A DNA stretch of 64,000 nucleotides from an uncultured Myxococcales bacterium (GCA_964647025.1 CAZYFU010000001.1:293-64292); one strand, 5' to 3'; shown: positions 30,151-63,194, counted from the stretch's first letter. Notes: generated by a model from the sequence alone, not told the origin. Program-made: numbers and translations.

Positions 30151-30267
30151 GCAACCTCCGGACGGCAATCGAGATTGTAGCGACGTGACCGCAGCGACGC
30201 CACGCCCATGTCGATAGACGGCCGTTAATTCCATTCCATCGCACGTCGGGATCGTTATAGTGGCGAT

Positions 30268-31800
<1,533 letters not shown>

Positions 31801-31855
31801 CCCTCCGTCTTTCCATTTGACACACTGGTGGAAAGCCGACTAGCACTGGCAGGCC

Positions 31856-33118: not shown

Positions 33119-33135
33119 AACGAAGACCGGGCGCT

Positions 33136-34548: not shown

Positions 34549-34768
34549 AGATTCCGCAAGCCTGGCTCGACGGTTCGTTACGGCAAGAGCCCCCCGAAGA
34601 CGTAGCCTCCAGGCAGCCCGGCGCGGCTTTGCGGGAACACCTCGTTACCATCTCGAACGATCGGCACGACTCGAAGGCGGCGCCCGACGCCGTTCCCCTG
34701 GCGCTTTCTCTTTCCACGCCAGCCCACTTGGCCCCTCGGCGCCGCCTGAACAAGCGACAATCCCATGA

Positions 34769-42988: not shown

Positions 42989-43441
42989 TCATGAAGGCTT
43001 GCTAGCAGGAGGAAGGACCAGGACTGGACAGGGGGCCGATGAGAGCAAGGCGTCGCGCACGCTACCGAACATGGTGTGGAAGAGCCGTCCGTGGTGGTGC
43101 GATCCCAGCACGATGAGATCGGCGTGGATCCTCTCGGCCGTCTCGCGGATCTGCTCGGCGGCCGAACCACGTCGGCACATGCAATCTACGTCGGGAACAC
43201 CGCTTGCTTCGGCCATCGCGTGCAGCTTGCCGAGCGACGACCGGAGCTCGTACCGGTCGACCTCCATGATGGCGGGCGAATACGCGCCACCGCTCCAGGC
43301 CATTCCGGCCATGGGTGCCGACGGCGGCATGGTGTGGAGAATGGCCAGGTCGGCCCGCTCCGTGCGAGCCATTTCGGCGGAAGCCGCAAGCACCTGCGGC
43401 GTGGAGTCGGAAAAATCCACAGCGGCCAAAATGCGATGCAT
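42989..43441 (-). CDS. universal stress protein (UspA family)
   Basis: Start at MHRILAAVDFSD. C-terminal ATP-binding motif ...LIVLGSHHHG...GSV... Confidence 0.75.
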   Translation of the reverse strand: MHRILAAVDFSDSTPQVLAASAEMARTERADLAILHTMPPSAPMAGMAWSGGAYSPAIMEVDRYELRSSLGKLHAMAEASGVPDVDCMCRRGSAAEQIRETAERIHADLIVLGSHHHGRLFHTMFGSVRDALLSSAPCPVLVLPPASKPS

Positions 43442-43607
43442 GACGAATCCCCCTTTCCCAACACGAGCGCTCACGGCGAGCGCACCATCCAATCGTGCCT
43501 GCCGTAAGTATGCAACCTTCGAGGCTCGTGTTCCCCTCCCAGGTTGTCACGCAGGGAAGCCCCGGAATCCAAACAGCATTCCCCGAGCCGCTTCGCGCGA
43601 TCCCGGA

Positions 43608-44177
43608 CTACCTCCAGCCCAAGTACCGCGCGGTTCGCTCGCAGTAGGCGGCGTAGGCGTCGCCGTACCGTCTGGCGCAGGCGCGCTCCTCGGCCAGGAT
43701 CATCGGATGTTGGACGACCAGCATCGCGAGCAGCGTAGCCGACAGCAGTGGGTTGCCTGTGGCGATGCACGCCCCGAGAAATACGAGCGTGGCCGACACG
43801 TAGAGCGGGTTGCGCGAGAAACGGTACGGTCCAGACAGAATCGGCTGGTCGAGGGGCGTCTTGCTGAACACGCCGAGCGTCGCGAGAAAGCCAGCGGTCC
43901 CCAGCGAGGAAACGAGAACGCCCGCGACGAGCCACGCTCCGAACGAGGCAAGAGGAGCCAACGTCGATATCGCGACGAAGACGTAGGGCAGGAGGGAAGC
44001 CGTCACGGTGAAGAGCTTCTCCCGGATTCCATAACCCGTCATGTCCGACAAACGCTTGGCGACCTGCTTGTGTGGTAGCACGGCGAGCATGCCGATGATC
44101 AGCATGGGCGCGCAGAGCAGCCAAGCATTCCAGAAACCGAGGACGAGCGTCGGCGTAGCGTTCACAACGGCGAGCAT
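43608..44177 (-). CDS. isoprenylcysteine carboxyl methyltransferase (ICMT/PEMT)-family membrane methyltransferase
   Basis: Signature ILSGPYRFSRNPLYVS is present, in a multi-TM protein. The start is uncertain (Met at 44177 chosen). Confidence 0.6.
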   Translation of the reverse strand: MLAVVNATPTLVLGFWNAWLLCAPMLIIGMLAVLPHKQVAKRLSDMTGYGIREKLFTVTASLLPYVFVAISTLAPLASFGAWLVAGVLVSSLGTAGFLATLGVFSKTPLDQPILSGPYRFSRNPLYVSATLVFLGACIATGNPLLSATLLAMLVVQHPMILAEERACARRYGDAYAAYCERTARYLGWR

Positions 44178-44236
44178 ACATCGCGGTGGGATATGGGAGA
44201 GGTCGCCTCGGTCACAGTCCGCCCCGCTTTGGCAGA

Positions 44237-44587
44237 TCAGTACGCGTGGCAGCCGAAACAATCCGGGGTCACGCCAGCTTGTTCATGGCAGCGATCGCAG
44301 AACTGCTGCCGGTTGGCGTGACAGCCCTGGCACGAAGAGATCCCTTGAGCCTGCGCGCTCCGGTCGCCGCTCCTCACCACGCGATCACGCATCGCCTTGA
44401 GGTGGGTCATGTGCTGGTAGCGCATCTCTGCTCTCGGCAGGACGCAACGGGTGCCCGCGCGTGCAGGCTCGAGCCATGGCGAGGATGGCGAGGGGCGCGC
44501 CGCGAAGCCAACCAGCGCCACCAGCAGCGGTACCACCAGCGCGGCGAGGCCAAGAACGACAACCCGCCGAGACCGCCTGGCGCTCAT
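44237..44587 (-). CDS. DsrJ-like triheme cytochrome c (second copy), translationally coupled to qmoC
   Basis: 116 aa. Signal anchor MSARRSRRVVVLGLAALVVPLLVALVG. Three CxxCH motifs (CQGCH, CDRCH, CFGCH). ATGA overlap with the qmoC stop and a GGAGG RBS. Paralogous to dsrJ at 62817. Confidence 0.75.
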   Translation of the reverse strand: MSARRSRRVVVLGLAALVVPLLVALVGFAARPSPSSPWLEPARAGTRCVLPRAEMRYQHMTHLKAMRDRVVRSGDRSAQAQGISSCQGCHANRQQFCDRCHEQAGVTPDCFGCHAY

Positions 44588-45813
44588 ACCTTGCCTCCGT
44601 CTCGGGACGGCTGCTCGGCCCGCTCGCGATGGAAGCCGCGACGACCGGTGTGCTCGGCATAGACCATCGCCACGGTCCGGTACACCACGTGCGCGAGCTT
44701 GCTGTAGGGCACAAGCAGGATCAACGCGAACACCAACGCGAGGTGAACCAGGTAAACCGCGTGGCGAAGGGGCTCGACGCGCAGCCAGTGCAGGCCCTCG
44801 GAGGCAAAGCCTGACAGACCAATCAGAAGCAGAAGCGCCAGCAAGATCCAATCCGAGCTGCGCGTGGCGCCCGAGCTCTCCGGCCTTCGCCAGCGTTCCC
44901 ACAGCATGAGAGACGTCCCGAGCAAGAGTGACGCCCCTCCCAGGTTCGCCAGGATCTTCCAGGGACTCCACAAGGCGAACGGATACACGGTGCCGGCGAG
45001 CAGCGGATTCCAGCGCGCCGTCACGGCCCAGAAGCTCGTCAGCACGAGCGCGCCGCAGCCGAAGACGACGAAGAGGTGATGTCTGCGCCGGACTTGGTTG
45101 GTCGCACACGCGGCGAAGTCGTCGTGGAACACGATACGCGACAGGACCGCGCGCAGGCTCGAACCGATCGGCCGTCCGCGTGGTCTTCCGTCGGCGGCGG
45201 ACATGCTTCGCCAGAACGTGCTCGCGCCGCGCACCAGCACCGCCATGTCGAACGCCAACAGCGCACCGAACAGGCTGCCCAGCAGCCAGTGGGGCAAGCC
45301 ATTCCAAAAAGGAAACACCGCCCGGGGACCAGTCAGCGACAGCTCGAACGAAGTCGCGCCCAGCGCCTGCCACATGCTCGAAGCACCCAGCAACACGACG
45401 AGCGCGCCCGCCACGATCACGAGCACGTTGACCGGTCGGTTCGCCCACCGGCCGAACCAACGTGGCGACGAGTGATGGATGATGTGCTCACGCCTGAGCG
45501 CGGCCATCACGTCGCTCGGCCGAGCGCCCCGAGGGCAACGCCGCGTGCAGTCTCCGCACTGGTGACAAAGCCACGGGTCGGGGTCGCTCATCAAGCGATC
45601 CCGCAGGCCCCATTGCGCCCAGAGCATCTCCTTGCGGGGCCCCGGCGACTCGGCAGCGAGGATCTCGCACACGCTGGAGCAGGTCGCGCACTGCATGCAC
45701 TTACGCAAGTCCTCACCGCCGCTTGCCAGCACGCCCGCGAGCAAGTCCCGGTCCGGCCGCAGGCGCTGCCTGCGACCTTCGACCTGACGCTCGCTTGGAC
45801 TTCCGTCGGACAT
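44584..45813 (-). CDS. qmoC: quinone-interacting membrane-bound oxidoreductase subunit C (HdrC-like FeS domain fused to HdrE-like membrane cytochrome b)
   Basis: Two CxxCxxCxxxC ferredoxin motifs (CMQCATCSSVC, CHQCGDCTRRCP) followed by 5-6 TM helices with conserved His residues. Start taken at the Met just after the qmoB stop. Confidence 0.8.
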   Translation of the reverse strand: MSDGSPSERQVEGRRQRLRPDRDLLAGVLASGGEDLRKCMQCATCSSVCEILAAESPGPRKEMLWAQWGLRDRLMSDPDPWLCHQCGDCTRRCPRGARPSDVMAALRREHIIHHSSPRWFGRWANRPVNVLVIVAGALVVLLGASSMWQALGATSFELSLTGPRAVFPFWNGLPHWLLGSLFGALLAFDMAVLVRGASTFWRSMSAADGRPRGRPIGSSLRAVLSRIVFHDDFAACATNQVRRRHHLFVVFGCGALVLTSFWAVTARWNPLLAGTVYPFALWSPWKILANLGGASLLLGTSLMLWERWRRPESSGATRSSDWILLALLLLIGLSGFASEGLHWLRVEPLRHAVYLVHLALVFALILLVPYSKLAHVVYRTVAMVYAEHTGRRGFHRERAEQPSRDGGKV

Positions 45814-45817
45814 GGGG

Positions 45818-48055
45818 CTACGAATCCTTGAAGGGATTGGGACCCAGGGCATCCAGGTGCTTGACGAAGTCGTCGATCAGCTTGGGCAAGGTCAGGTAGT
45901 CCGCGAGGGTCACGTGATCCACGCGCACCCGCTGGTCTTCGAGAGCCATCTGCTTGAGCTTCTGCTTGATGTTTTCGCTGCGCGTGGCCAGGAGCTCACT
46001 GCCTCGGGTGTAGTGACACTGGGTCTGCTCGCCAGGTTTGCAGCCCAGCATGAGCACGCCGTCGAAGCCGCGCGCGAACGCATCCGCCAGCCACACCACG
46101 TTGATGGCACCCAAGCATCGAACGGGGATCGCCCTGACGAAGGCGCTCCAACGCTGCCCATGGAAGCCCGCCAGCTCGAGCGCGGGGAAGGCGTCGTTCT
46201 CGCACAGAAGCATCAGGATGCGCGGCTTCTCGTCGAACTCGCCCGGAACCTCGATGGACTTGATCATCCGCGAGACCAGATCGATCGAATAGTCGGCGTA
46301 CGAGATGATGCGCTCGGGGCAGGCGCCCAGGCAGATACCGCAGCGTCGACAACGGCCGGGATTCGGCTTCGGCGTGCCCTTTTCGTCTTCGTCGAGCGTA
46401 CCGAACGGACACTCCTCCGTGCAACGCTTGCACTGGGTGCAACGCTGGAGATTGAAGGCGGGGGGCGAGATGTCACCCCAGCGCGGGTGCATGGCCTCGC
46501 CGAGCGCGCAGTGCTCGATGGCCTGGATGGCCTTGAGCGCCGCTCCCTCGCCATCGACGATGCAGCCCGCCAGGTCGCCTGGCGCCCGCAAACAGCCCGC
46601 GGCATAGATGCCGGTCCGCCGGGTCTCGTACGGGAAACAGATGAAGTGCGAATCCGGAAAGCCGTACTCGAGCGCCGGCAAATCCGGGCCCTGACGGTAG
46701 GTGAGCCCGAGAATCTCGGTGCCCTCGATGGGCGACAGTCGGTCGACGGTGGCCTGCAAGACCTCGACGTTGCCCTCGCCCTTCGCGAGGTTCTTGCGCG
46801 CATCCTTCAGCTCGCGCAGGGCCAGCCCGTCCGCCGCCGCCGGCACCATGCCCACTGCGAGCACCACCAGATCGGCCTCTAGATCGATCGCGTCGCCGAG
46901 CTGGCTCTTGCCGAGTTGGACGAGCAATCCGTCGGCAGAGGGCTCCACGCCGGTCACGTCACCCTTGCAGATAAAGATGCCCCGATCCTCTTGCGCCCGT
47001 CGGTAGAAATCCTCGTGCAGCCCCGGCGTGCGAATCTCCTTCGCGACCACGTAGGCCTCGCAACTCGGCTCCAGCTCGCGCAGCCACAGGGCCTGCTTGA
47101 GCGTCACGCGACAGCACACGTTCGAGCAGTACGGCAGGTGCTGGGGATCACGCGAACCGGCGCATTGGATGAAGGCGATGCGCGTGGGTTTCTTGCCGTC
47201 GGATGGACGACGAACCTTCCCCTCGCCCAGCATACGCTCGAGCTCGACGCTGGTGACGACGTCCGGCGATTTGCCGTAGCCCAAGTGCGGAAGCTTGTGC
47301 GCGTCGTACGGCCGAAAACCGGTCGCCTGCACGATGGCGCCGACGCGGGTCGAGACCTCTCGCTCGCCCACGCTCAGCACGACCTCGAACTGCCCCGGCT
47401 GCCCCGAGATCGACTTCACCGTCGCGCCGCAGTGAACCTCGATGTTGGGATCGGCCGCGATCGCCTCGCAGCGGTTCGCCAGATCCGGTTCCTGCAGGTC
47501 CCGACACGGCGCGCAGCTCGGGAGCACGCGCTTCCAGGTGCGCAACCAGCCGCCCAAGGACTCCGCCTTCTCGACCACGACGACCTTGTACCCGGCCCGC
47601 GCGGCACCGGACGCCGCCGCCATCCCCGTGGGACCGCCGCCGACCACCAGCACGGTCCGCTCGGCTGGCAATGGCTGTGCCTGCGGAAGCTCGACGCGCG
47701 AGGCCCGGATGGTGCCCATGCGAATGACGTCCTCGGCCAGCATCTGCGTGTCTTCGTGCTTCGGCTCGTGGCTCGCCACCACCAGCTCGCGCAGACTGAC
47801 ACGCTCGACGTGACAGCCCGGGCGCGCGAAGGCATCGGCATGAAACCGCGCCGAGCACGCCGCGACCACCAGCGCGCCCGCCCCACCGGCCAGCGCCTCG
47901 TCGATGACTGGGGTCGCGGCCTGTCCGCACAGAAGCGGTACGGACTTCACCAGCGCGACGCCCTCTAATTTCGCGGCGGTCTTCTCCAGCTTCGGCAGGT
48001 CGAGCGACTCGCCGATCTTGCAGCTCTGGCAGATGAGGACGGCAGCCTTGGCCAT
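45818..48055 (-). CDS. qmoB: Qmo subunit B (HdrA-like flavoprotein with ferredoxin and MvhD-like domains)
   Basis: 745 aa. FAD-binding VLVVGGGPTGMAAA. Multiple 4Fe-4S Cys clusters (CTQCKRCTEECP, CRRCGICLGACP). Typical QmoB length and domain order. Confidence 0.85.
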   Translation of the reverse strand: MAKAAVLICQSCKIGESLDLPKLEKTAAKLEGVALVKSVPLLCGQAATPVIDEALAGGAGALVVAACSARFHADAFARPGCHVERVSLRELVVASHEPKHEDTQMLAEDVIRMGTIRASRVELPQAQPLPAERTVLVVGGGPTGMAAASGAARAGYKVVVVEKAESLGGWLRTWKRVLPSCAPCRDLQEPDLANRCEAIAADPNIEVHCGATVKSISGQPGQFEVVLSVGEREVSTRVGAIVQATGFRPYDAHKLPHLGYGKSPDVVTSVELERMLGEGKVRRPSDGKKPTRIAFIQCAGSRDPQHLPYCSNVCCRVTLKQALWLRELEPSCEAYVVAKEIRTPGLHEDFYRRAQEDRGIFICKGDVTGVEPSADGLLVQLGKSQLGDAIDLEADLVVLAVGMVPAAADGLALRELKDARKNLAKGEGNVEVLQATVDRLSPIEGTEILGLTYRQGPDLPALEYGFPDSHFICFPYETRRTGIYAAGCLRAPGDLAGCIVDGEGAALKAIQAIEHCALGEAMHPRWGDISPPAFNLQRCTQCKRCTEECPFGTLDEDEKGTPKPNPGRCRRCGICLGACPERIISYADYSIDLVSRMIKSIEVPGEFDEKPRILMLLCENDAFPALELAGFHGQRWSAFVRAIPVRCLGAINVVWLADAFARGFDGVLMLGCKPGEQTQCHYTRGSELLATRSENIKQKLKQMALEDQRVRVDHVTLADYLTLPKLIDDFVKHLDALGPNPFKDS

Positions 48056-48058
48056 GCC

Positions 48059-49330
48059 CTACCCTCCCCCCGCCGAGCAGACGGCCAGGGCCCGCAGGAC
48101 CGCGGCGGTCGCATCGCGGACCGCACAGGCGACGTCCATCGGTTCACGCGCACAGCCGGCGACCAGCTGGCCTGCCGATGGCTGCATCTGGCTGAGGAAA
48201 CCGTAGCGGTCGCGCGCCAGATCTGGCTTGGCTGGGGACGAGACTATGCCCGTGGCCAGCACCACCAGATCGACACGGTGGCGAAGACGCTTGCCCTGGT
48301 TCGTGTCCTCGACGTCGAGGATCGGTTTGCCTGCGTCCACCGTCACTTTCGACACCTTGCCCGGAACGAAGTGGATCTTGGGATCCCGCTCCGTCTCGGC
48401 CAGGAAGGTCTCCTGCCGGCCAGTGGCTCGTCGGTCGATGTAGTAGATGGAGATCTCGGCATCCGGGAGCTGCGCGCGCACGTAGCGCGCATGCTTGATC
48501 GAGGCCATGCAACAAAGTCCCGAGCAGTAGGGCAAATGGGCATCGTCGCGGGAGCCCGCACACTGGACGAAGGCCACGCTGGCAGGCGCACCACCGTCGG
48601 ACGGGCACACAACGCGGCCCGCGGTCGGGCCGTGAGGCGACGCCAGCCTTTCCATCATCATGTTGGTGATGATGTCCGGGTGCGCGCCGATGCCGAGGTC
48701 GGTGAGGTTCGAGGCCTCGTACGGTTGCCATCCCGTGGCCCAGATGACGGCCGCCACATCCAGGTCGAAAGGCCGTGGTTGCATGGACAAGTCAATGGCC
48801 TGCGAGGGACACGCGGAAGCGCACTTTGCGCAGCTTGCGCCGGTGCACGCCTCGCCGTCGATGGTGTAGCGGGTGGGGAAGGCCCCTGGGTACGTCAGGT
48901 ACGCCGCCTTGCTCTTGCCGAGCCCGAAGTCGAAAGCGCTGGGCCGCTCGACCGGACACACGGACGCGCAGGTTCCGCACGCCGAACAGTGCTCGGCGAT
49001 GAAGCGCGGCTCCTGCCGAAGCGAGACCCGGTACTTCCCCGGCGCTCCCGACACGGCCAACACCTCGGTCAATGTGTGAACCGTGATGCGTGGGCTGGTG
49101 CGGATGCGACGCAGGTTGATCTCCAAGCCGCACACCGGCGGGCACAGCTTGGGGAAGTACTGGTACATCTGGGCCACGCGGCCGCCGAGGTTCGGCTCGC
49201 GCTCGACCAGCACGACGTCGCACCCGGCCTCCGCCGCCTCGACGGCGGCGGAGATCCCGGCAATGCCTCCGCCGACGACGAGCAGCTTGCCGCGCGTCCG
49301 GCCGGGTGCTGTGGTGCTTGGGGTGGTCAC
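48059..49330 (-). CDS. qmoA: Qmo subunit A (HdrA-like flavoprotein)
   Basis: FAD-binding LLVVGGGIAGISAA. HdrA-like Cys motifs (CSACGTCASVCP, CAKCASACP). A GTG start at 49330 overlaps the aprA stop (GTGA). The ORF-track ATG at 49381 would overlap aprA by 55 nt. Confidence 0.8.
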   Translation of the reverse strand: MTTPSTTAPGRTRGKLLVVGGGIAGISAAVEAAEAGCDVVLVEREPNLGGRVAQMYQYFPKLCPPVCGLEINLRRIRTSPRITVHTLTEVLAVSGAPGKYRVSLRQEPRFIAEHCSACGTCASVCPVERPSAFDFGLGKSKAAYLTYPGAFPTRYTIDGEACTGASCAKCASACPSQAIDLSMQPRPFDLDVAAVIWATGWQPYEASNLTDLGIGAHPDIITNMMMERLASPHGPTAGRVVCPSDGGAPASVAFVQCAGSRDDAHLPYCSGLCCMASIKHARYVRAQLPDAEISIYYIDRRATGRQETFLAETERDPKIHFVPGKVSKVTVDAGKPILDVEDTNQGKRLRHRVDLVVLATGIVSSPAKPDLARDRYGFLSQMQPSAGQLVAGCAREPMDVACAVRDATAAVLRALAVCSAGGG

Positions 49331-51231
49331 CGCTCGGAGTCGCGCGTGAGGTACTTCACCGGGCGCTTGATCATCGTCCATTCGCCCGTCTGCGGATCCC
49401 GTTTGGTGTTGCAGAACGCCAGCCAGTTGGCCTGGTCCAGCGTCGGCTTGTCAGAGCGCACGTAGTAGCCGGGCCACCGGGTCTCGTCCCGGAACAGCAT
49501 GGACCGCATGTGCGCCTCGGCTTGCAGCAGGCGGTGCCGGTTCTCCCAGCAGCGCATCAGCTCGTGCAGGGTCTCGGCGCCCAGCTTGTCTGCGTCCTCG
49601 CGCAGGAAGGCCAGCATCTCCAGGCCCTTTTCGAGCTGGGTCTTGCTGGTGGCGAGCTGGGTGGACACGCCGCCCGCGTACTCGTCCATGATCTTCTGCA
49701 AGCGAGCCATCATCTGCTTCGGGCGCAGGTAGGCGGGGTTGATGTCCGGATCCGTGGTCTCCTCCTTGTGCTGCTCGAAGTTCGAGAGGGGCTTGAGCAT
49801 CTCGCCGATCATCCCCTGAACCTGAGCGTCAGAGACCGGCGCCCCCGCGCCCTTGTCGACGATGAACTGCAGCGCCGCTTTGCCGGCGATGCGCCCCTCG
49901 GTGAACGAACCCGACGAGAACTTGTGGCTGGAGGCGCCGCTGGCGTCCCCCGCCGCGAACAGCCCCTGCACGGTGGTCATGTTCGCGTAGCCCCAGAAGT
50001 ACTCGTTCTCGGTGTCGCCGGTCTGCAGATCCTTCGGCCCCGACACCCACGCGCCCGAGGCGCCCGAGTGCGATCCGATGAAGTAGGGCTCGCAGGCCAT
50101 GATCTCCGACGGCTTCTTGTCGGGCTCGACGTTGGTGGACGCCCACAAGAGCGCCTGGGCGATGGTCATGTCCAGGAAGTCCTCCCACGCCTCGCTCTCC
50201 AGCTCCTTCAGCTTCTTCTTGGCTGCCTTCTCGTCGGGCATCGACTGGCTGATCTTCTTGATCGCCTCTTCGGTGCGCATGTAGATGGGGCCCTTGCCCT
50301 TCTGGATGTCGAGCATCATGAGCCAATTGCGCAGGTTGGCCGGGGTCGGCTTGGCCTGGCCGTACGGCCCCCACTTGGTCAGCTCGGCGGCGTTGGTGGT
50401 CATGTAGTCTTCGCCGAGGGCGTTGGTGGCGAGCGACTTGAACAGCAGGAACCACGCGCCCACGGGGCCGTATGCATCCTTGAAGCGCACGGGGACGAAG
50501 CGGACTTCCTGGCAGGTCATCTCGGCACCCGCCGAGATGGTGAACGCGGCGCTGCCGGCCGAGTTGAAGGGCGGATACCACGAGCGGCCGAGGCCCTCGC
50601 CGGTGGAGCGCGGGCGGAACACGTGCACCGCGCCGCCCATGGTGGCCAGCACGGCCTTGGCCTTGAAGATATAGACCGTGTTCTCGCGGTTCGAGAAGCC
50701 GACGGCGCCCACGCAACGGCCTTCGGACATCAGCGGGTGCGTGATGAACACGCGCTCGAAGTACTGGCCACCACACTCGGCCAGCGCCTTCTTGGCGGCC
50801 TCGGCGACGATGACCTTGTACGACTCGCCGCTGATCATGACCTGCCAGCGCCCCTCGTGGACGTAGTTGCCGGCGTCATCCTTCCAGATGGGCAGGCCCC
50901 ACTTCTCGAACATGTGCACCGTGGAATCCACGTGGCGGGCGATGTTGGCCACGAGGTCCTCGCGGGTGATGCCCATCAGGTCGTTGCGCACGTAGTCGAC
51001 ATAGTCGCGCAGGGTGTTCTTCCCGCCGTTCGAGTCGAGATAGAGATTGATGGCGGACAGGCCCATGGCGACGGCACCAGATCTGTCCATGGCGGCCTTG
51101 TCCACCAAGGTGACCTTGAGCCCGTGCTTCTTCGCCCAGTGGGCGGTCTCGACCGCGGCTCCGCAAGCGGCCATACCGCCGCCGCAGATGAGGAGGTCGG
51201 TTTCGACCACGACTGTTTTGAAATCCGACAT
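49327..51231 (-). CDS. aprA: adenylylsulfate (APS) reductase alpha subunit
   Basis: Start at MSDFKTVVVETDLLICGGGMAACGAA (FAD fold) with a GGAGGA RBS. 634 aa. AprA-specific blocks conserved throughout. The upstream 121 codons of the long ORF are junk. Confidence 0.9.
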   Translation of the reverse strand: MSDFKTVVVETDLLICGGGMAACGAAVETAHWAKKHGLKVTLVDKAAMDRSGAVAMGLSAINLYLDSNGGKNTLRDYVDYVRNDLMGITREDLVANIARHVDSTVHMFEKWGLPIWKDDAGNYVHEGRWQVMISGESYKVIVAEAAKKALAECGGQYFERVFITHPLMSEGRCVGAVGFSNRENTVYIFKAKAVLATMGGAVHVFRPRSTGEGLGRSWYPPFNSAGSAAFTISAGAEMTCQEVRFVPVRFKDAYGPVGAWFLLFKSLATNALGEDYMTTNAAELTKWGPYGQAKPTPANLRNWLMMLDIQKGKGPIYMRTEEAIKKISQSMPDEKAAKKKLKELESEAWEDFLDMTIAQALLWASTNVEPDKKPSEIMACEPYFIGSHSGASGAWVSGPKDLQTGDTENEYFWGYANMTTVQGLFAAGDASGASSHKFSSGSFTEGRIAGKAALQFIVDKGAGAPVSDAQVQGMIGEMLKPLSNFEQHKEETTDPDINPAYLRPKQMMARLQKIMDEYAGGVSTQLATSKTQLEKGLEMLAFLREDADKLGAETLHELMRCWENRHRLLQAEAHMRSMLFRDETRWPGYYVRSDKPTLDQANWLAFCNTKRDPQTGEWTMIKRPVKYLTRDSER

Positions 51232-51233
51232 GA

Positions 51234-51731
51234 CTACTTTCCTCCGTTCTGCGATCGGGTCAGGGCAAGCTCCGGAAGGCCGGCGTGCTTGACGGGTCCT
51301 TGTTCCGTGTTGAGGGCCGCGGGCTCTCCGACCAAAAGCGGGCTCGACAGCTCCTCGGATGCCGTGGGGAAGTGGCCGTACGGCTCCACCTGGCCTTCGG
51401 ACACGCCCCGTCGGATGGGGAACTTGAAACGCTTGGGTCTGATCTCGGGATTGCGGAACTGCACGGTCCACATGATCTCCTCCGTGCTGCGCATGGCGCT
51501 CACGCTGGCGCCCATGGGGACGAAGTCCGAGTAGCCGCGCACCTCGATGGCCTGGTTCGGACAGAGCTTCACGCAATTGAAGCACTCCCAGCACATCACG
51601 GGGTCTCGGTTGTACGCCTTCATCTTCTGACGATCCAAGGTCATCAGATCATTGGGGCAGATGTACTGACAGGCCGTCTTGTCCAAGGCCTTGCACCCAT
51701 CACACTTGCTGGCGATGACATAACTTGGCAT
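51234..51731 (-). CDS. aprB: APS reductase beta subunit (2x[4Fe-4S])
   Basis: Start at MPSYVIASKCDGCK. Cys clusters CDGC...C...CP and CWECFNCVKLCP. 165 aa. Stop/start overlap (TGATG) with the upstream dsrP-like gene. Confidence 0.88.
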   Translation of the reverse strand: MPSYVIASKCDGCKALDKTACQYICPNDLMTLDRQKMKAYNRDPVMCWECFNCVKLCPNQAIEVRGYSDFVPMGASVSAMRSTEEIMWTVQFRNPEIRPKRFKFPIRRGVSEGQVEPYGHFPTASEELSSPLLVGEPAALNTEQGPVKHAGLPELALTRSQNGGK

Positions 51732-52963
51732 CAGGTCTCCATTGGCGCGGCCCCTGCCATGCCCGGTTGGCGCGCGGTTGAGGGTGGTTGTTGTTCTGCA
51801 TGGACTGAAACAGGCACGCTTGCCTGGGCGATCGCGAAGATGGGACGGGCGAGCAGGAACGCCAAAGCACCGCCGGCGTAGATGCCGACGACGATGGCGA
51901 CCTCGGGCAAACTCGGCCGGTAGTCGCTGACATAGCCGAGCGGCGACGGAACGAAACCGGAGGTGACCAGGCAAAGTCCTTTGTCGACGAGGACCGAGAC
52001 GAGAATCGAAGCCGTGGCGACGGTCGCGAGCGCCGGACGGCGCCGAAGGGCCGGCACCAACAGCACGACCAGCGCGAACAGAAGCAGACCCCAGGAGAGG
52101 TAGTTGAAGGCGAGAAGTCCGTTGTGGCCGTCGAGCCCCAAGAAGAGGTATGCGAGGTGCTCCCGCGCATCCGGAACTCCGGAGTACAGCGCGGTGAACG
52201 CCTCCAGCCCTGCCAACAGCAGGCTCAGGACGGCGGCGTAGGTCATGACCACCGAGAGCCGCACGATGGCCTCACGGCCGACATCGAACACCTTGGCGCG
52301 TGCCAAGGCCCCGGCGAGCAGGATCAACAAGGCCGGCCCCGATGCGAAGGCCGTTGCCAAAAAGCGCGGCGCCAGCACCGCCGTCATCCACGCGGGCCGG
52401 GCCGACAGCCCCGCGTAGAGCAGCGCCGTCACCACGTGGATACCAATGGCCCAAGGAATGGTGGCGAGCGCCAAGCCTCGTGCCCACTTCGCCGACGAGG
52501 GCCCGCGCGAGAACAGGGCCAGGAAGAGACCGACGACCGACAGCCCGAGATAGCCCGTCAACGTCAGACAGTCCCAGAACATCAAGGACGACGGCGACGG
52601 GTAGAGCAGGATGTTGAGCAGCCGCCGCGGCTGACCGAGATCCACGAAGATGCACGACAGCGCCTGGCAGAGCGCGATGATGGCGACCACCTCTCCCAAA
52701 ATCAGCGCCCGAGCGAACACCTTCTGGCGGTGCACGTAGTACGGCAGCAGCACCGTGACCGCCGACGCCCCGATGCCCACCAGGAAGGTGAACTGCGCGA
52801 TGTAGAGCCCCCAGGGTACGTCGCGCGAGAGGCCCGTCACGCCGAGGCCATCGCGGCTCTGCACGGCGTACGCGACCGCGCCAAGCAGGGCCAGAAGGAA
52901 CAGCACCGCCATCGCGACTCGACCGAACGTGCGGGTAGGCGTTTGTTGCGGCATCGGCGTCAC
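51731..52963 (-). CDS. NrfD/PsrC-family integral membrane protein (DsrP-like quinone-interacting subunit)
   Basis: 410 aa, about 10 TM helices, NrfD-family architecture. It is coupled (ATGA) to the upstream FeS subunit gene. Confidence 0.75.
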   Translation of the reverse strand: MTPMPQQTPTRTFGRVAMAVLFLLALLGAVAYAVQSRDGLGVTGLSRDVPWGLYIAQFTFLVGIGASAVTVLLPYYVHRQKVFARALILGEVVAIIALCQALSCIFVDLGQPRRLLNILLYPSPSSLMFWDCLTLTGYLGLSVVGLFLALFSRGPSSAKWARGLALATIPWAIGIHVVTALLYAGLSARPAWMTAVLAPRFLATAFASGPALLILLAGALARAKVFDVGREAIVRLSVVMTYAAVLSLLLAGLEAFTALYSGVPDAREHLAYLFLGLDGHNGLLAFNYLSWGLLLFALVVLLVPALRRRPALATVATASILVSVLVDKGLCLVTSGFVPSPLGYVSDYRPSLPEVAIVVGIYAGGALAFLLARPIFAIAQASVPVSVHAEQQPPSTARQPGMAGAAPMET

Positions 52964-53745
52964 AGCAGATAGAAGATGCTCGGTTCGGTGCCGAGCCCGG
53001 GCTTACGGCGCAGCACCTGACGGGACGCCAAGAGCTGCCTGAGCGGTGAGCTGGCGTCCTCCAGATTGCCGAAGGTCAGCGCCGCCGTTCCACGCACGCG
53101 ACAAGTGTCCACGCACAAGGGGATCTGCCCTGCGTCCAGCCGCTCCACGCACAGGTTGCACTTCTCGACCACTCCCGCGGTTCGCGCGGGATAGTTGTTC
53201 GCGGTCTGTTCGGGCTTCGGATTCTCCCAATTGAAGCTGCGGGCACCGAAGGGGCACGCGGTCATGCAGTAGCGGCAACCGATGCAACGATGCGCATCCA
53301 TCGCCACCACGCCATCGCTGCGGCGCCAAGTCGCTTGCGTGGGGCACACCCGGGTGCAAGGGGCGTTCGTGCAGTGGTTGCACAGCACCAGCACGGGCAT
53401 CTGCCGACGAGCATCGCTGTCGTAGGGATGGGCTTGCTCGGGGAAGACACGAGCATAGTGCTCCTTCCATAACCACTTGATCTCGTGTTTGGGATCCGCC
53501 ATCACCGGCACCCGGTGGGCAGCGTGGCAGGCGTCGATACAGGCCCGACACCCCGACTGGCTGGCGCAGCGACCGAGGTCGACGGCCATTCCCCAGCGCG
53601 GGATCGCCCGCCCCGCGACGCTTGCCAGCCCCGTGCGCGACGAGACCCCCGTGACCGCCGCCGCCCCCAGCGCGGCCCCACCTGCGGTCAGCAGAGCCCG
53701 CCGGCTGAGCTCGCACGTCTCGAGCGGTCCTTGGGCCCGCTTCAT
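52960..53745 (-). CDS. periplasmic 4x[4Fe-4S] ferredoxin subunit with Tat signal (DsrO/PsrB/HmcB-like)
   Basis: Twin-arginine motif SRRALLTAGGAALGAAAV. Four Cys clusters: CASQSGCRACIDAC, CNHCTNAPCTRVCP, CIGCRYCMTACP, CNLCVE...CVDTC. Start taken at MKRAQGPL. Confidence 0.75.
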   Translation of the reverse strand: MKRAQGPLETCELSRRALLTAGGAALGAAAVTGVSSRTGLASVAGRAIPRWGMAVDLGRCASQSGCRACIDACHAAHRVPVMADPKHEIKWLWKEHYARVFPEQAHPYDSDARRQMPVLVLCNHCTNAPCTRVCPTQATWRRSDGVVAMDAHRCIGCRYCMTACPFGARSFNWENPKPEQTANNYPARTAGVVEKCNLCVERLDAGQIPLCVDTCRVRGTAALTFGNLEDASSPLRQLLASRQVLRRKPGLGTEPSIFYLL

Positions 53746-53817: not shown

Positions 53818-54189
53818 TCACGCCCTGCTTGGATGCGGCGAATTCGCGCGATTTGGCACCGTCCGAAAAGGCCGAACGGCCCGTCCCATCATATTTACTG
53901 GGCCGCTCCCATCAAATAGCCTGGCTCGCCGAAGACCGCCGTTCAGGGCGAGACGGGGTCGATGATCGCGAACAGCGATCCCGTCGCGAGCAAGACGTAC
54001 TCGACCAGATTGCGCATGATTCTCCCAAGTATGGATTGCCTTCGGCGCTCGTCCTGGAACGCCACACCAGCAAATGTCACGGGCTCATCCGTGGTCCTCG
54101 GGCCGGGCTCGGCGAAGCGCGCGCAGCAGGGTACGCGTTTTCCAGCGTTCCAATGCCGAATTGCGCTTTTCCCCTTCTCGCTGGATATG

Positions 54190-56514: not shown

Positions 56515-56748
56515 ATGGAGAACCTGACCGCAGAAGCACTCGCCGACGCCATGTACGCCATGGTCAAGGACTGCCACGGCAAGCGCCAGCTCAAGCCTCT
56601 CGATCTGACCAAGGCCATGATGGAACGCTTCGGCGAGGGCTGCGACAAGAGCCTGTGCAAAGAGGCCATCCGGCTGCTCATCGACGACGAGCGCTGCACC
56701 TATTCCTACGCGGGCGGCAGCTACATCGTTCTTCCTCCGGAGAAGTAG
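56515..56748 (+). CDS. dsrD: DsrD (small winged-helix protein of reductive-type dsr operons)
   Basis: 77 aa, located immediately after dsrB. The C-terminal pattern LLIDDERCTYSYAGGSYIVL resembles DsrD's ...L..DevleYwSSGSTtmY. Confidence 0.7.
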   Translation: MENLTAEALADAMYAMVKDCHGKRQLKPLDLTKAMMERFGEGCDKSLCKEAIRLLIDDERCTYSYAGGSYIVLPPEK

Positions 56749-56751
56749 GCT

Positions 56752-58434
56752 ATGGCGCTGCTGCGAAAGAAGGAGGGCACGAAGCCGCTGCAGTTTCGCA
56801 CCAGCGCGCCGTCCAGCAGCGCGGTCTCCACGCTGCGCCCCCGGCGCACCCCCAAGTCGAGCCCCTGCCAGTCCTCTTGCCTGGCCGGGACCGACGTGCG
56901 CGGCGTGGTGGCTCTGCTCGCGCAGCGAGAGAAGCTGGGGCTGACGGTCGACCAGGCCTGCGAGCGCGCGTTCGCCCTGATCGCCGAGACCAATCCCTTC
57001 CCCGCCACGACGGGCCGCATCTGCCCCCATCGCTGCGAGGAGAACTGCAGTCGCCATCAGAAGGACGGCGGCGTTGCCGTCGGCACCATCGAGCGCTTCA
57101 TCGGAGACTTTGCCCTAGAGCATGGTCTAGCCTTGCCCGGCGGCCCGGCCTCCCCGACCCAGACCGAGAGAGTAGCGATCATCGGAGCCGGACCAGCCGG
57201 GCTTTCTTGCGCCTACCAGCTCGTGCGTCGCGGGTACGCATGCACGTTGTTCGAGGGCATGCCACAGCCCGGCGGCATGCTCCGGTACGGCATCCCGTCG
57301 TACAGACTTCCCGCGCACGTCTTCGAGGGTGAGATCGACCGCATCCTTCAGCTCGGGGTCGAGCTGCGAACGCGAACCATGATCGGTCGTGACGTCAGCT
57401 TGGACGAGCTTCGCCAGCAGTTCGCCGCCGTGTTCGTCGCCCCCGGTGCGGCGGTCAGCCGCGCAGTCGACATCCCGGGCGCGAAAGGCGCCTGTGTCTT
57501 CAGGGCCGTGGATTTCCTGCGCGACGTCGCCAGGCATGCCCCTCCAGGCCTCGGTCGTCACGTGGTCGTGGTGGGCGGGGGAAACACCGCCATCGACGCG
57601 GCCCGGGTGTCCGCACGCCTGCTCGGAGGGCACGGTGAGATCACCCTGCTTCGGCAGGAGAACGAAACCGTAGACGAGGATCTTCGCGACGCCATGGAGG
57701 AGGGCGTCTCGGTGGAGTTCCTGTCGACGTTGGACTCGGTGGTCCGCGACGCCATGGGCGGCATCGATCACGTCGTCATCCAGCGCATCGAGTTGGGAGA
57801 GAAGGACGGAAATGGCTTCCCGACGCTGATCCCCTTGGCTGGCAAGAGCTACGAGCTGCGCGCCGATGCCGTCATCCTGGCGCTGGGACAGAAGCCCAAC
57901 GTGAGCCCGATCTTCCACGAGAACCCCGACCAGTACGAGCCCGACGCCACGGGGAAGACCAAGGCGGCGCGGGTGTGGCGTGGCGGCGACGCGGTCACTC
58001 CCAGCTTCGCCGCGGTGGTCATCGGCCAGGGTCGCCAGGTTGCGTTGTCCATCGACGCCGAGCTGCGAGGCCGTCCGCTCGAAGAACCGGCCAAGCTGCC
58101 CGACCTGGCCACGAGCCGGCTCAAGCTCGAGTGCTACGATCGGATGCCGAGGCTCGGCCGGCGGCTCATTCCGGTGCGAGAGCGCCTCGCGGATCTGCAA
58201 AGCGAGATCGAGCCCGGCTACGAGCCCACCGCGGTGTTGCGAGAAGCCGCTCGCTGTCTGTCGTGCGGCAACTGCTTCGGCTGCGAGCGCTGCTGGATGT
58301 ACTGCACGCCCGGCTGCTTCTCGAAGGTCGCAAAGACGGAACCAGGAACCTACTTCACCATCAACCTCGAGAAATGCGACGGCTGCCGCAAGTGCGCCGA
58401 AGAGTGTCCGTCGAGCTTCTTGGAAATGGGCTGA
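56752..58434 (+). CDS. dsrL: GltD-family NAD(P)H:acceptor oxidoreductase with C-terminal ferredoxin domain (DsrL-like)
   Basis: FAD fold (VAIIGAGPAGLSCA) and NAD(P) fold (VVVVGGGNTAIDAA) are present. N-terminal Cys cluster (CPHRCEENC) and C-terminal 2x4Fe-4S (CLSCGNCFGCERC; CDGCRKCAEECP). Position within the dsr operon supports the call. Confidence 0.7.
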   Translation: MALLRKKEGTKPLQFRTSAPSSSAVSTLRPRRTPKSSPCQSSCLAGTDVRGVVALLAQREKLGLTVDQACERAFALIAETNPFPATTGRICPHRCEENCSRHQKDGGVAVGTIERFIGDFALEHGLALPGGPASPTQTERVAIIGAGPAGLSCAYQLVRRGYACTLFEGMPQPGGMLRYGIPSYRLPAHVFEGEIDRILQLGVELRTRTMIGRDVSLDELRQQFAAVFVAPGAAVSRAVDIPGAKGACVFRAVDFLRDVARHAPPGLGRHVVVVGGGNTAIDAARVSARLLGGHGEITLLRQENETVDEDLRDAMEEGVSVEFLSTLDSVVRDAMGGIDHVVIQRIELGEKDGNGFPTLIPLAGKSYELRADAVILALGQKPNVSPIFHENPDQYEPDATGKTKAARVWRGGDAVTPSFAAVVIGQGRQVALSIDAELRGRPLEEPAKLPDLATSRLKLECYDRMPRLGRRLIPVRERLADLQSEIEPGYEPTAVLREAARCLSCGNCFGCERCWMYCTPGCFSKVAKTEPGTYFTINLEKCDGCRKCAEECPSSFLEMG

Positions 58435-60182: not shown

Positions 60183-61193
60183 ATGGGCAGACACCTGACG
60201 ATGCACCTGGGCGGCGCGCTCGGCGCCGTGCTCATCGCTTGCGGTCTGCCCATGTTGGCCGTCGCCGTCACTGGACGCGGCTGGCTGGTGGCGCTCTCGG
60301 TGGCGGTTCTTGCCGTACCGTTCCTCGTCGTGGGCTTCGTCGCGAAGCTTCTCCGGTGGATTCGCGTTCCCATCCCCTTCCGCATTCCACTCACGGTCGG
60401 GCAGCAGCGCTCGTTGCGCACGGTCGGCCATCAGCGAACCCTCACACCTCACACCGCGCCCCAGGCCGTCGCCCGAGCAGTCCTCGACATCGGCCTCTTT
60501 CGTCCCCTGACCCGAACCACGCCCAGCGCCCGCTCGCTCGGCGACGGCTTGGACCACGGCGCCACGCGGACACTCTGGCTCGCGGCCGGACTGCTCCACC
60601 TTTCCCTGGCCGTGATCCTCGTTCGCCACGCGCGCATGTTCCTCGAGCCCGTGCCGAGCTTCGTCGTCTGGCTGGAGGACATCGACTCGGTGGGTGAGGT
60701 CACGCTGCCGAGACTTCACGCGAGCAGCCTGGTGTTCGGTTTCGCGCTCCTGTTCCTGCTTGGCAGGCGGCTCTGGCTGGCCAGACTGCGCTACATCTCC
60801 CTGGCTGCCGACTACTTCCCGCTGCTGTTGCTCTTGGCTATCGCCACCTTCGGCCTGCTCACCAGGCACGTGACCGGCTCCGACGTTCCGGCGCTGAAGC
60901 AAGCGCTCGTCGGCCTGACCGGGGGATCGCTCGCGCTCCCCGCGACGATGGATCTCTTCCTGGTCGTGCATGTGTTCCTGATTGGTGTGCTCCTGGTCTA
61001 CTTCCCACTGAGCAAGCTCATGCACGCCCCCGGGGCTTGGCTGAGCCCGACGCTGACCATGGCGAACACGAACCGCGAGCGGCGCCACGAGAACCCCAAC
61101 AATGCTTCCGTCGAGGTCCTCCACTACGCCGACTACGAGGACGCCTTTCGTGGCCCGATGATCGCCGCGGGTCTGCCAGTCGAGAAGGAGTGA
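60183..61193 (+). CDS. dsrM: DsrM (NarI/HdrE-like membrane cytochrome b)
   Basis: 336 aa with 5-6 TM helices and conserved His in TM2/TM5. Located immediately upstream of dsrK. Confidence 0.8.
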   Translation: MGRHLTMHLGGALGAVLIACGLPMLAVAVTGRGWLVALSVAVLAVPFLVVGFVAKLLRWIRVPIPFRIPLTVGQQRSLRTVGHQRTLTPHTAPQAVARAVLDIGLFRPLTRTTPSARSLGDGLDHGATRTLWLAAGLLHLSLAVILVRHARMFLEPVPSFVVWLEDIDSVGEVTLPRLHASSLVFGFALLFLLGRRLWLARLRYISLAADYFPLLLLLAIATFGLLTRHVTGSDVPALKQALVGLTGGSLALPATMDLFLVVHVFLIGVLLVYFPLSKLMHAPGAWLSPTLTMANTNRERRHENPNNASVEVLHYADYEDAFRGPMIAAGLPVEKE

Positions 61194-62817: not shown

Positions 62818-63194
62818 TGGACGTCGGGAAGATCGTCGGCGGAGCCGTCATCGCGGCCGTGATCGCCGCCGGCCCGCTGTGGGTCGCCACCGTGCGCGGC
62901 GCGAAGACCGAACCACTTGCGCAGCCCATCGGGACTGGGCCATGCATCGAGGCCGCGGACGCCATGCGCACGCGCCACCCGGCCCTGCTCTCCACATGGC
63001 GCGAACAGGTGGTTCGCGAAGGCCAGCGCGCCTATCACACCACCGATGGACGCGACGTACGCATCGGCCTCGGCGAGACCTGCCTCGGCTGCCACGGCGA
63101 GGCCAGCAAGTTCTGCGACCGCTGCCACGCCCAGAATGCCGTCACGCTCTCTTGCTGGCAGTGCCATGCACAGTCGCCGATCGCGCGACCTTAG
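62817..63194 (+). CDS. dsrJ: DsrJ (periplasmic triheme cytochrome c)
   Basis: 125 aa. TM/signal anchor at the N-terminus. Three CxxCH motifs (CLGCH, CDRCH, CWQCH). Start overlaps the dsrK stop (ATGA-type). Confidence 0.8.
   Translation: MDVGKIVGGAVIAAVIAAGPLWVATVRGAKTEPLAQPIGTGPCIEAADAMRTRHPALLSTWREQVVREGQRAYHTTDGRDVRIGLGETCLGCHGEASKFCDRCHAQNAVTLSCWQCHAQSPIARP

Follow-up and report, generated by a model that had tools for sequence, protein, structure and literature searches.

Does an apr-qmo operon that begins with genes of the dsrO and dsrP kind and ends with a gene for a DsrJ-like cytochrome encode a Qmo complex with partners on the periplasmic side? The question is raised by a stretch of 64,000 nt from an uncultured Myxococcales bacterium (GCA_964647025.1 CAZYFU010000001.1:293-64292), hereafter called the window, in which the genes for adenosine 5'-phosphosulfate (APS) reductase (aprBA) and for the membrane complex QmoABC are preceded by an O and a P gene and followed by a gene for a triheme cytochrome c, J2. 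To our knowledge, the characterised QmoABC complexes are without periplasmic subunits, and the first-pass annotation had proposed that J2, O and P extend Qmo to a transmembrane Qmo-JOP complex. We find that a relocated dsrOP pair, which may be shared, together with a Qmo-type J describes the locus better than a dedicated Qmo-JOP set does. In the best explanation, to which we give a probability of roughly 0.6, J2 belongs to a cytochrome-bearing subtype of Qmo, and the relocated DsrOP most likely serves both DsrMKJ and QmoABC-J2. The evidence consists of gene content, sequence comparison and synteny, from which we infer physical complexes and electron flow. Survey loci are labelled Lnnn and the window itself WIN; J', O' and P' denote the Qmo-linked homologues of DsrJ, DsrO and DsrP.

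Organization of the apr-qmo operon

About 70 kb of genome were covered in all, made up of the 64-kb window and its extensions. The window has a G+C content of about 65%, which makes raw lists of open reading frames (ORFs) noisy, and the gene map was therefore drawn from third-position GC and family searches. Between 53745 and 44237 it shows eight tightly packed genes on the minus strand in the order dsrO-dsrP-aprB-aprA-qmoA-qmoB-qmoC-J2, the layout with O and P in the lead that had been described before:

52960..53745, minus strand: dsrO, Dsr-type, exported by the twin-arginine translocation (Tat) pathway, four [4Fe-4S] clusters (Fer4_11; DsrO model 275 bits)
51731..52954, minus strand: dsrP, Dsr-type membrane subunit of the NrfD family with the quinol site (NrfD 121 bits; DsrP model 317 bits)
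51234..51731, minus strand: aprB, with its ATG overlapping the dsrP stop as TGATG (aprB model 188 bits)
49327..51231, minus strand: aprA (aprA model 864 bits)
48059..49330, minus strand: qmoA, 423 aa from a GTG start that overlaps the aprA stop, as called in the relative L084
45818..48055, minus strand: qmoB, HdrA-like with a C-terminal MvhD/FlpD domain (domain and family search)
44584..45813, minus strand: qmoC, HdrC-like iron-sulfur (FeS) domain plus six-helix cytochrome b domain, J-linked subtype (qmoC model 319 bits)
44237..44587, minus strand: J2, Qmo-linked triheme cytochrome c of 116 aa with three CxxCH motifs, its start overlapping the qmoC stop as ATGA
53888..53915, minus strand: sigma-70-like promoter candidate, TTGATG-16-TATGAT, upstream of dsrO in the 484-bp divergent dsrO/dsrA intergenic region (consensus match only)

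Besides the TGATG and ATGA overlaps, a third one joins aprA and qmoA (GTGA), and the remaining gaps measure at most 6 nt. An alternative GTG start of dsrP at 52963 overlaps the dsrO stop, and an upstream ATG at 49381 is an alternative start of qmoA, giving 440 aa. The translational couplings claimed for dsrP/aprB and qmoC/J2 were found as described, as was the strong ribosome-binding site of J2 (GGAGG, 8 nt upstream of the start). Terminator-like hairpins, which would interrupt the operon, are at background level (8 seen, 6.2 +/- 2.9 in shuffles), with none at any junction of the set from dsrO to J2, and the promoter candidate is the only sigma-70-like match between 43400 and 54400. Taken together, the overlapping or at most 6-nt junctions, the lack of a terminator excess and a gene order kept in relatives suggest one operon from 53745 to 44237 as the best explanation, divergent from a dsrABDLNCMKJ-cysG-dsrM2K2 operon with which it is probably co-regulated. 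The Qmo part has the canonical make-up, with two HdrA-like flavoproteins, of which the second carries the MvhD/FlpD domain, next to aprBA; domain content and the model score (319 bits at a cut-off of 300) bear out that QmoC is a fusion of the HdrC and HdrE types.

J2 is a Qmo-type relative of DsrJ

Several traits of DsrJ are also found in J2. Its three heme motifs (CQGCH, CDRCH and CFGCH) lie in a protein close to the ~120 aa of DsrJ, behind an N-terminal hydrophobic anchor that reads VVVLGLAALVVPLLVALVGFAA. C48, M55 and H59 are conserved, the first and last of them invariant in both J classes, and J2 and J' thereby have the ligand set of DsrJ with one Cys, one extra His and three CxxCH. J2 follows qmoC and is not placed between dsrK and dsrO as a dsrJ is, and it scores 75.4 bits on the DsrJ model (NCBIfam NF038038, cut-off 100), inside the range of Qmo-linked J' (65-76 bits). 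No Pfam family matched it. In neighbour-joining (NJ) trees it falls in the Qmo-linked clade (bootstrap 0.88). The earlier description of J2 as a DsrJ paralogue thus stands as far as the three heme motifs and the ligands go, all of which are present, and has to be changed in one respect, as J2 represents a Qmo-linked family of its own and not a stray copy of dsrJ.

The ratio of nonsynonymous to synonymous substitutions (dN/dS) of J2 against relatives is 0.10-0.16, compared with 0.19-0.29 for QmoC, 0.11-0.16 for DsrO and 0.11-0.20 for DsrP, which indicates that J2 is under purifying selection. A decaying dsrJ duplicate, which we had considered, is ruled out by these values (at dS up to above 1) and by the intact ligands. 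That J2 is a Qmo subunit of the DsrJ-like kind appears to us rather likely.

A qmoABC-J'O'P' module recurs in many lineages

Two surveys were used to see how common such a gene order is. A scan based on AprA, with one genome per species, gave 80 loci; the second started from a profile of five qmoC-linked triheme cytochromes, for which 80 metagenome loci were fetched together with the neighbourhoods of three matches. The J' profile matched at least 1006 protein clusters, all unnamed and none with a Pfam domain.

Of the AprA-survey loci, 57 were informative for the gene behind qmoC, and in 4 of these it encodes a triheme cytochrome, namely in L005 and in metagenome-assembled genomes (MAGs) of Planctomycetota (L006), Acidobacteriaceae (L012) and Acidobacteriota (L057); in L006 and L057 the next two genes after the cytochrome encode a Tat-FeS protein and an NrfD protein. 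J2-type genes behind qmoC were found at 56 loci in total: 35 go on to O' and P', 11 break off with the contig, and in 10 the contig is long enough but shows no O, so that O' stands directly behind J' in 35 of 45 informative cases. J1-type genes, that is those of the dsrJ kind, stand behind dsrK at 20 loci, of which 15 go on to dsrO, 4 end with the contig and one, the window, has room but no dsrO. No J1-type gene was seen behind qmoC among the surveyed loci. The reverse, a J2-type gene behind a Dsr gene, was apparent twice, once from a borderline tblastn call that is a D-type J in the tree (L138) and once where the contig is probably cut inside qmoC (L152). L057/L116 and L163 carry both qmoABC-J'O'P' and dsrMKJOP, and the two sets are therefore paralogs within one genome.

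Named carriers belong to Planctomycetota, Zixibacteria, KSB1, LCP-89 and Acidobacteriota. Across the carrier phyla P' is about 70% identical, under no other annotation than 'NrfD/PsrC family'. The 4-nt overlap of qmoC and J' recurs in L001, L084, L085 and L087, unrelated lineages included, and J' stays attached to qmoC even where O'P' are absent. The survey of related apr-qmo loci that the first-pass annotation had called for thus strongly backs, as judged from synteny, qmoABC-J'O'P' as a conserved six-gene module of many lineages. The window would be a further derived form of it: a coupled J' and a J-linked QmoC are present, with no O'P' behind J'.

Several loci vary this theme. L012 (15572-17165) and L118 (8812-10345), both Acidobacteriaceae-labelled and with AprA 76% identical to that of the window, have aprBA-qmoABC-J' with no O- or P-like gene in about 5 kb downstream of J' or anywhere upstream in the locus. 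L074 (35-1165 and 4434-6367; Acidobacteria UBA6911) has a J-less qmoC and, about 3 kb further, a stand-alone O'/P'-like pair without a cytochrome gene, from which it follows that O'P' can occur without J'; its P groups with the Qmo type, and its O lies outside the Qmo-linked clade in the tree, though its nearest labelled neighbour by identity is Qmo-type. In L085 (Zixibacteria, 12431-14351) and L087 (12638-14531 and 1684-5008) the module lies away from aprBA and is followed by genes for a PAS histidine kinase and a response regulator, in L087 sdhCAB precede it, and in L006 (11331-12589) sat follows it.

QmoC co-varies with the presence of J'

Of 84 QmoC sequences placed in an NJ tree, the 32 that are followed by J' form an exclusive clade (bootstrap 0.88), with all 50 J-less QmoC outside, among them MAGs of Gemmatimonadota, Acidobacteriota, Desulfobacteraceae and Bacteroidota. 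A column was counted as class-specific if one residue reached at least 90% in the J-linked class and at most 10% in the other. Seven columns qualified (T265, L271, W285, H342, R345, P348 and R350), all of which the window QmoC carries. With the topology taken from hydrophobic segments and charge, and the N-terminal HdrC-like domain taken as cytoplasmic, all seven are located in the predicted periplasmic loops between transmembrane helices (TM) 3 and 4 and between TM5 and TM6. J-linked QmoC also show the strongly conserved motifs NPL...YPFxFWSPWK and HyxRxePhRh and a TM1-TM2 loop longer by about 8 residues. To judge from the sequences, these loops would look like a docking surface for a periplasmic cytochrome, and they echo the remodelled periplasmic face of DsrM that accompanied the acquisition of DsrJ according to a 2026 cryo-electron microscopy (cryo-EM) preprint on DsrMKJOP. 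An hhalign comparison meant to locate in QmoC the arginines by which DsrM-2 closes its quinol site aligned only TM4-6 (probability 95.6%), and R345 and R350 had no clear counterpart. The distinct QmoC clade and the recurrent synteny both speak for the general idea behind the earlier proposal, a Qmo with a DsrJOP-like periplasmic and NrfD-type extension.

O and P of the window are Dsr-type

The picture is a different one for the O and P proteins at the head of the operon. Window O has a twin-arginine signal (SRRALL) and 16 cluster cysteines and exceeds the cut-off of the DsrO model (NF045797, 200 bits). This model fails to separate the two types, as Qmo-type O' reach 273-295 bits, and annotation pipelines will consequently call O' DsrO. 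Four columns are diagnostic, with H77, K90, M149 and E201 in D-type and N, H, V and H in Q-type proteins; window O is D-type at all four and lies outside the Qmo-linked O' clade (NJ, bootstrap 0.70). H152 in the motif DxHRCIGC is kept in both O types and may be equivalent to His148 of Archaeoglobus DsrO. No DsrJ or DsrO chain was among the PDB structures searched; the best matches of O there were PsrB/NrfC-type proteins, and J2 had none.

P is the sharpest marker between the Dsr-linked and the Qmo-linked set. Window P, which is well above the Pfam NrfD cut-off of 25.8 bits, comes close to the cut-off of the DsrP model (NF045798, 350 bits), with 317 bits against 73-82 bits for Qmo-type P', and groups with Dsr-linked P in the NJ tree (bootstrap 0.83). 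With the models for QrcD and NrfD, P' reach no more than 44-54 bits. O and P of L004, L005, L084 and L090 are likewise Dsr-type. The phylogenies of O, P and J that had been proposed as a check each split into a Qmo-linked and a Dsr-linked group (bootstraps 0.70, 0.83 and 0.88), and by these sequence criteria window O and P are Dsr-type and J2 is Qmo-type. For a Qmo-JOP complex built on just this O and P, the DsrO- and DsrP-like identity of the two proteins was correctly recognised; the DsrP score, the diagnostic residues and the trees place them with Dsr and not with Qmo.

The dsrMKJ genes lack dsrOP

Where, then, are the usual partners of these two genes? On the plus strand across the 484-bp gap lie dsrA, dsrB, dsrD, a dsrL-like gene, dsrN, dsrC, dsrM, dsrK and dsrJ1, followed by cysG, which runs off the window end. 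The genes that matter here are:

60183-61193, plus strand: dsrM
61195-62817, plus strand: dsrK
62817-63194, plus strand: dsrJ1, with dsrM and dsrK the presumed ancestral partners of dsrOP
63256 onward, plus strand: cysG-like, directly after dsrJ1 in the place of dsrOP

J1 has 125 aa and scores 115 bits on the DsrJ model. The cysG-like product (572 aa) fuses a precorrin-2 dehydrogenase with a uroporphyrinogen methyltransferase. Beyond the window the operon ends with a NarI/DsrM-like gene (297-305 aa) and a DsrK-like gene (528-532 aa), the paralog pair dsrM2K2, of which the dsrK2 product scores 302 bits on the DsrK model (cut-off 400). The cysG-dsrM2-dsrK2 part was traced through window 63256-64000, L169 754-4768 and L170 1728-5955. 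L169, an extension from the window's own population, L170 (91.5% DsrK identity) and a JGI contig all read dsrK-dsrJ-cysG-dsrM2-dsrK2 and then unrelated genes, which confirms the earlier observation that cysG and not dsrOP follows dsrMKJ. A dsrOP pair hidden beyond cysG is ruled out by the same three contigs, which have no O or P matches after dsrM2K2. A finding that would have spoken against the first proposal, a second dsrOP next to another dsrMKJ, did not turn up in the 64-kb window or the extensions; no second O- or P-like gene exists anywhere in the window. DsrMKJOP is hence not contiguous here, dsrMKJ1 being continued by cysG-dsrM2K2 and dsrOP standing in the divergent apr-qmo operon; of the 16 informative dsrK-J1 loci, all but that of the window continue with dsrO.

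Within the same operon (window 56515-58434), dsrD (77 aa) is followed by the dsrL-like gene for an NAD(P)-binding FeS flavoprotein (560 aa; NF009410 476 bits, under its cut-off of 516) in a dsrAB operon of the reductive type. The combination of DsrD and DsrL has been reported for peatland Acidobacteria and other new lineages.

History of the window lineage

The order dsrOP-aprBA-qmoABC(-J2) facing dsrAB is shared by L004 ('Myxococcales bacterium fen_1138', whose contig shows this upstream end and breaks off within qmoA) and L005 ('uncultured delta proteobacterium'), both with 87% AprA identity to the window, and by the metagenome contigs L084 (AprA 99%, J2 91%) and L090 (AprA 93%, J2 80%). Where the AprA survey covered 2.5 kb or more upstream of aprB (66 loci), dsrOP abut aprB only in this lineage. 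The 15 J2 sequences nearest to that of the window (49-91% identity) form one clade. Six of its loci have O' behind J2 (L093, L094, L096, L097, L098 and L100), eight have none (WIN, L084, L090, L005, L089, L091, L092 and L095), and L099 is cut 75 nt behind J2 and uninformative. Nothing O- or P-like was found downstream of J2 in the window, and likewise in L084, L090 and L005. Every orphan-J2 locus that reaches far enough upstream (WIN, L084, L090 and L005) has Dsr-type dsrOP before aprB. L097, whose AprA is 85% identical to that of the window, retains J2-O'-P', so the loss of O'P' should be recent. Orphan and O'-bearing members are interleaved in the subtree of this short protein, and O'P' may have been lost once or more often. 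On the evidence of these gene orders, the Qmo-type O'P' most likely disappeared from the lineage, and dsrOP, of which a single pair is visible, left its place after dsrMKJ and now leads the apr-qmo operon.

Convergence of the orphan J2 on Dsr-type residues was also looked for as a sign of docking on DsrO and was discarded, since J2 is Qmo-type at the few columns that can be used, a result that is uninformative to negative.

A different account of the orphan J2 would have QmoABC-J2 work with Qmo-type O' and P' from another place in the genome, with the window dsrOP serving DsrMKJ only. The six close relatives that still have O' behind J2, the stand-alone pair without J' in L074 and the fact that about 70 kb of the genome were examined all leave room for it. 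We nevertheless consider it improbable, as O' is directly behind J' in 35 of the 45 informative loci, no such pair occurs in the 64-kb window or the extensions, and its absence behind J2 is conserved in at least 8 loci of the window lineage.

A possible electron path

According to the 2026 cryo-EM preprint, quinol is oxidised at DsrP of the DsrMKJOP complex and electrons pass via DsrO, DsrJ and the two DsrM hemes to DsrK. DsrJ is positioned on the periplasmic face of DsrM, DsrO gives a His ligand to one of the DsrJ hemes, and the NarI-type quinol site of DsrM is occluded. An electron path for the Qmo module can be modelled on this structure. J2 would be anchored in the membrane and would contact the di-heme QmoC from the periplasmic side, in the way that DsrJ contacts DsrM. 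Quinol would be oxidised at the NrfD-type P' with release of protons to the outside, and electrons would travel through the four FeS clusters of O' and the three hemes of J' to the two hemes b of QmoC, thus crossing the membrane. From there they would pass via the QmoC FeS domain and QmoB/A to AprBA, where APS would be reduced with cytoplasmic protons, making the route the electrogenic half of a redox loop. In the window a single DsrOP would feed both J1, for DsrMK and the DsrC trisulfide, and J2, for Qmo, Apr and APS. Both the conservation of H152 in the two O types and the DsrJ-like ligand set of J2 are consistent with the donation of a His by DsrO to a DsrJ heme.

Not all parts of this scheme carry the same weight. 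That J2 would physically associate with QmoC and share DsrOP with J1 follows by analogy, and for DsrOP feeding J2 we see slightly less than an even chance. Only tentatively do we propose the complete picture, in which one DsrOP is common to DsrMK-J1 and QmoABC-J2, maybe in mixed assemblies, and QmoABC-J'O'P' is a real six-subunit electrogenic complex; mixed assemblies of DsrMK-J1 and QmoABC-J2 are conceivable because DsrMKJOP dimerises via O-O and P-P contacts. The first-pass annotation had further suggested that Qmo-JOP would give APS reduction a second, periplasm-facing quinone site of the NrfD type, and had related this to the energetic feasibility of menaquinol oxidation by Qmo. The comparative model does supply an explicit, relocated quinol site, but the near-zero driving force from menaquinol to APS remains. 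The module relocates the quinol site and does not, alone, solve the thermodynamics of menaquinol-driven APS reduction.

J'O'P', or J2 in the window, could also be a separate periplasm-facing quinone-reactive complex that is co-expressed with Qmo and linked to it only via the quinone pool. An older model for DsrJOP and DsrMK took such a quinone-cycling form, and qmoABC-J'O'P' is often found away from aprBA (L085, L087, L123), the module being defined by co-location only. The cryo-EM structure, in which DsrJ sits on DsrM within a continuous P-O-J-M-K cofactor chain, makes this reading very improbable, as do the translational coupling of J' to qmoC, its retention where O'P' are lost and the conserved periplasmic loops peculiar to J-linked QmoC.

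Is dsrOP shared or merely displaced?

The main rival to a shared DsrOP is a mere shuffle of gene order. DsrOP would then serve DsrMKJOP only, and J2 would work with QmoC without O and P, for example in periplasmic electron entry or exit, with QmoC keeping a quinol site of its own. Such a shuffle would fit the Dsr-type nature of O and P and the need of dsrMKJ1 for an OP partner according to the cryo-EM model. L012 and L118, as a second lineage with qmoC-J' and no O/P nearby, indicate that J' can persist alone, J2 has not drifted toward D-type residues, and cable bacteria provide a precedent for dsrMKJ apart from dsrOP homologues. We still hold the shuffle to be unlikely. Among the 66 loci with enough upstream sequence, the position of dsrOP next to aprB is confined to the window lineage; it coincides with the missing O'P' behind J2 at every locus of this lineage that covers both ends (WIN, L084, L090 and L005), and dsrP is translationally coupled to aprB. 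Moreover, a single conserved His outside the CxxCH motifs for three hemes suggests that J2 still needs a His from an O-type partner.

A number of points weigh against the sharing of DsrOP between DsrMKJ and QmoABC-J2. By sequence, O and P of the window are not the Qmo-type partners that accompany J' elsewhere, and a Qmo-type pair could lie outside the ~70 kb of genome covered. At three or four columns that discriminate the J types J2 keeps the Qmo-type state with no D-type shift, and the sequences give no sign that a Qmo-type J2 docks on a Dsr-type O. Adjacency of genes is no proof of a complex, and the place of dsrOP may say nothing about mechanism, given that the pair lies in one of two divergent and probably co-regulated operons. 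The survey that started from J carries the bias of its search pattern, and the trees are neighbour-joining trees without outgroup, calculated from ORFs derived from tblastn, with bootstraps of 0.70-0.88.

Neighbouring genes

On the same strand just 3' of J2 (42989-44261) are genes for a membrane methyltransferase of the PEMT/ICMT family and a universal stress protein (Usp). With a TTG start, the methyltransferase ORF (43608-44261) would extend into the end of J2, and L084 has a Usp gene at the matching place behind J2. At a distance of 8-14 kb from the operon (window 30229-36034) we found genes for a sigma-54 enhancer-binding protein (30229-31800), a phosphofructokinase, a MatE exporter and a PAS histidine kinase (34769-36034); a sigma-54 activator is also present near dsrM2K2 in L171. 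In L085 a CD-NTase and Cap15-type effector pair, resembling a cyclic oligonucleotide-based antiphage signalling system (CBASS), is located at 18612-20167, about 6 kb downstream of qmoABC-J'O'P'.

Comparison with known systems

In composition the Qmo module comes close to DsrMKJOP of sulfate reducers and sulfur oxidisers (the Hme complex in Archaeoglobus), which likewise combines a di-heme membrane subunit of the NarI/HdrE type, an Hdr-like FeS partner in the cytoplasm, a triheme cytochrome c anchored in the membrane, a Tat-exported 4x[4Fe-4S] protein and a quinol subunit of the NrfD type. DsrJ, DsrO and DsrP have homologues in J', O' and P', and O and P of the window are orthologues of DsrO and DsrP. 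The cytoplasmic side differs, with QmoC-QmoB-QmoA leading to AprBA and APS instead of DsrK and the DsrC trisulfide; in addition J' and P' stay below the DsrJ and DsrP cut-offs, and the window has dsrMKJ and dsrOP in different operons. With the canonical QmoABC of Desulfovibrio, Archaeoglobus and Chlorobaculum (aprBA-qmoABC) the window shares the domain content of the subunits and the linkage to aprBA, but its qmoC is followed by a coupled cytochrome gene, and the 50 J-less QmoC lack the loop signature and stand apart in the tree.

Cable bacteria have dsrTMKJ and a separate dsrOhPh-tetrahaem locus (PMC13047784; bioRxiv 10.64898/2026.08.25.746951). There too, dsrMKJ has no adjoining dsrOP and the OP homologues are in another cluster; these, however, form a distinct clade and stand beside tetrahaem cytochromes, while O and P of the window are canonical Dsr-type proteins in an apr-qmo operon. 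QrcABCD, NrfABCD, PsrABC and alternative complex III employ the same plug-in of an FeS and an NrfD subunit as a quinone-reactive module, though none of them is tied to a cytoplasmic module of the Qmo/HdrA type. Modular variation at the membrane end of Qmo is also known from QmoAB-HdrBC and QmoAB-HdrD of Gram-positive sulfate reducers, which lose the membrane anchor, whereas the qmoABC-J'O'P' variant gains periplasmic and NrfD subunits.

No Qmo-linked J/O/P set was found in the comparative literature (Neukirchen et al. 2023, Diao et al. 2023, DiSCo 2021, Hausmann et al. 2018, Calisto and Pereira 2021, the 2026 cable-bacteria genomics and the 2026 DsrMKJOP preprint), with a mention possible in the BBA 2021 review of the NrfD family, which agrees with the initial impression that no such arrangement had been described. 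Neukirchen et al. 2023 report DsrO-homologous clades beside NrfD genes whose function is 'not clear', and these may include O'. What is new is thus a widespread combination of known modules that is apparently undescribed.

Significance

The module bears on how QmoABC passes menaquinol electrons to APS reductase and on whether energy is conserved in this step. It offers a concrete electron path and a set of markers, J' and P', that are at present labelled 'hypothetical protein' or 'NrfD/PsrC family'. The carriers are uncultured Planctomycetota, Zixibacteria, KSB1, Acidobacteriota and Myxococcota-like bacteria, with peat, sediment and groundwater as their sources. If QmoABC has J, O and P paralogs of its own, many sulfate reducers would apply the DsrMKJOP-type solution to the APS branch as well, and if QmoABC-J'O'P' is a real complex, it would couple APS reduction electrogenically to the quinone pool, in the manner of DsrMKJOP, in many sulfate reducers that are not in culture. 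The window is a natural experiment in this respect, in that the Qmo cytochrome was kept, the dedicated O'P' were lost and dsrOP were re-sited beside apr-qmo. Should DsrOP indeed be shared, both reductive steps of sulfate respiration would draw on one NrfD-type quinol site.

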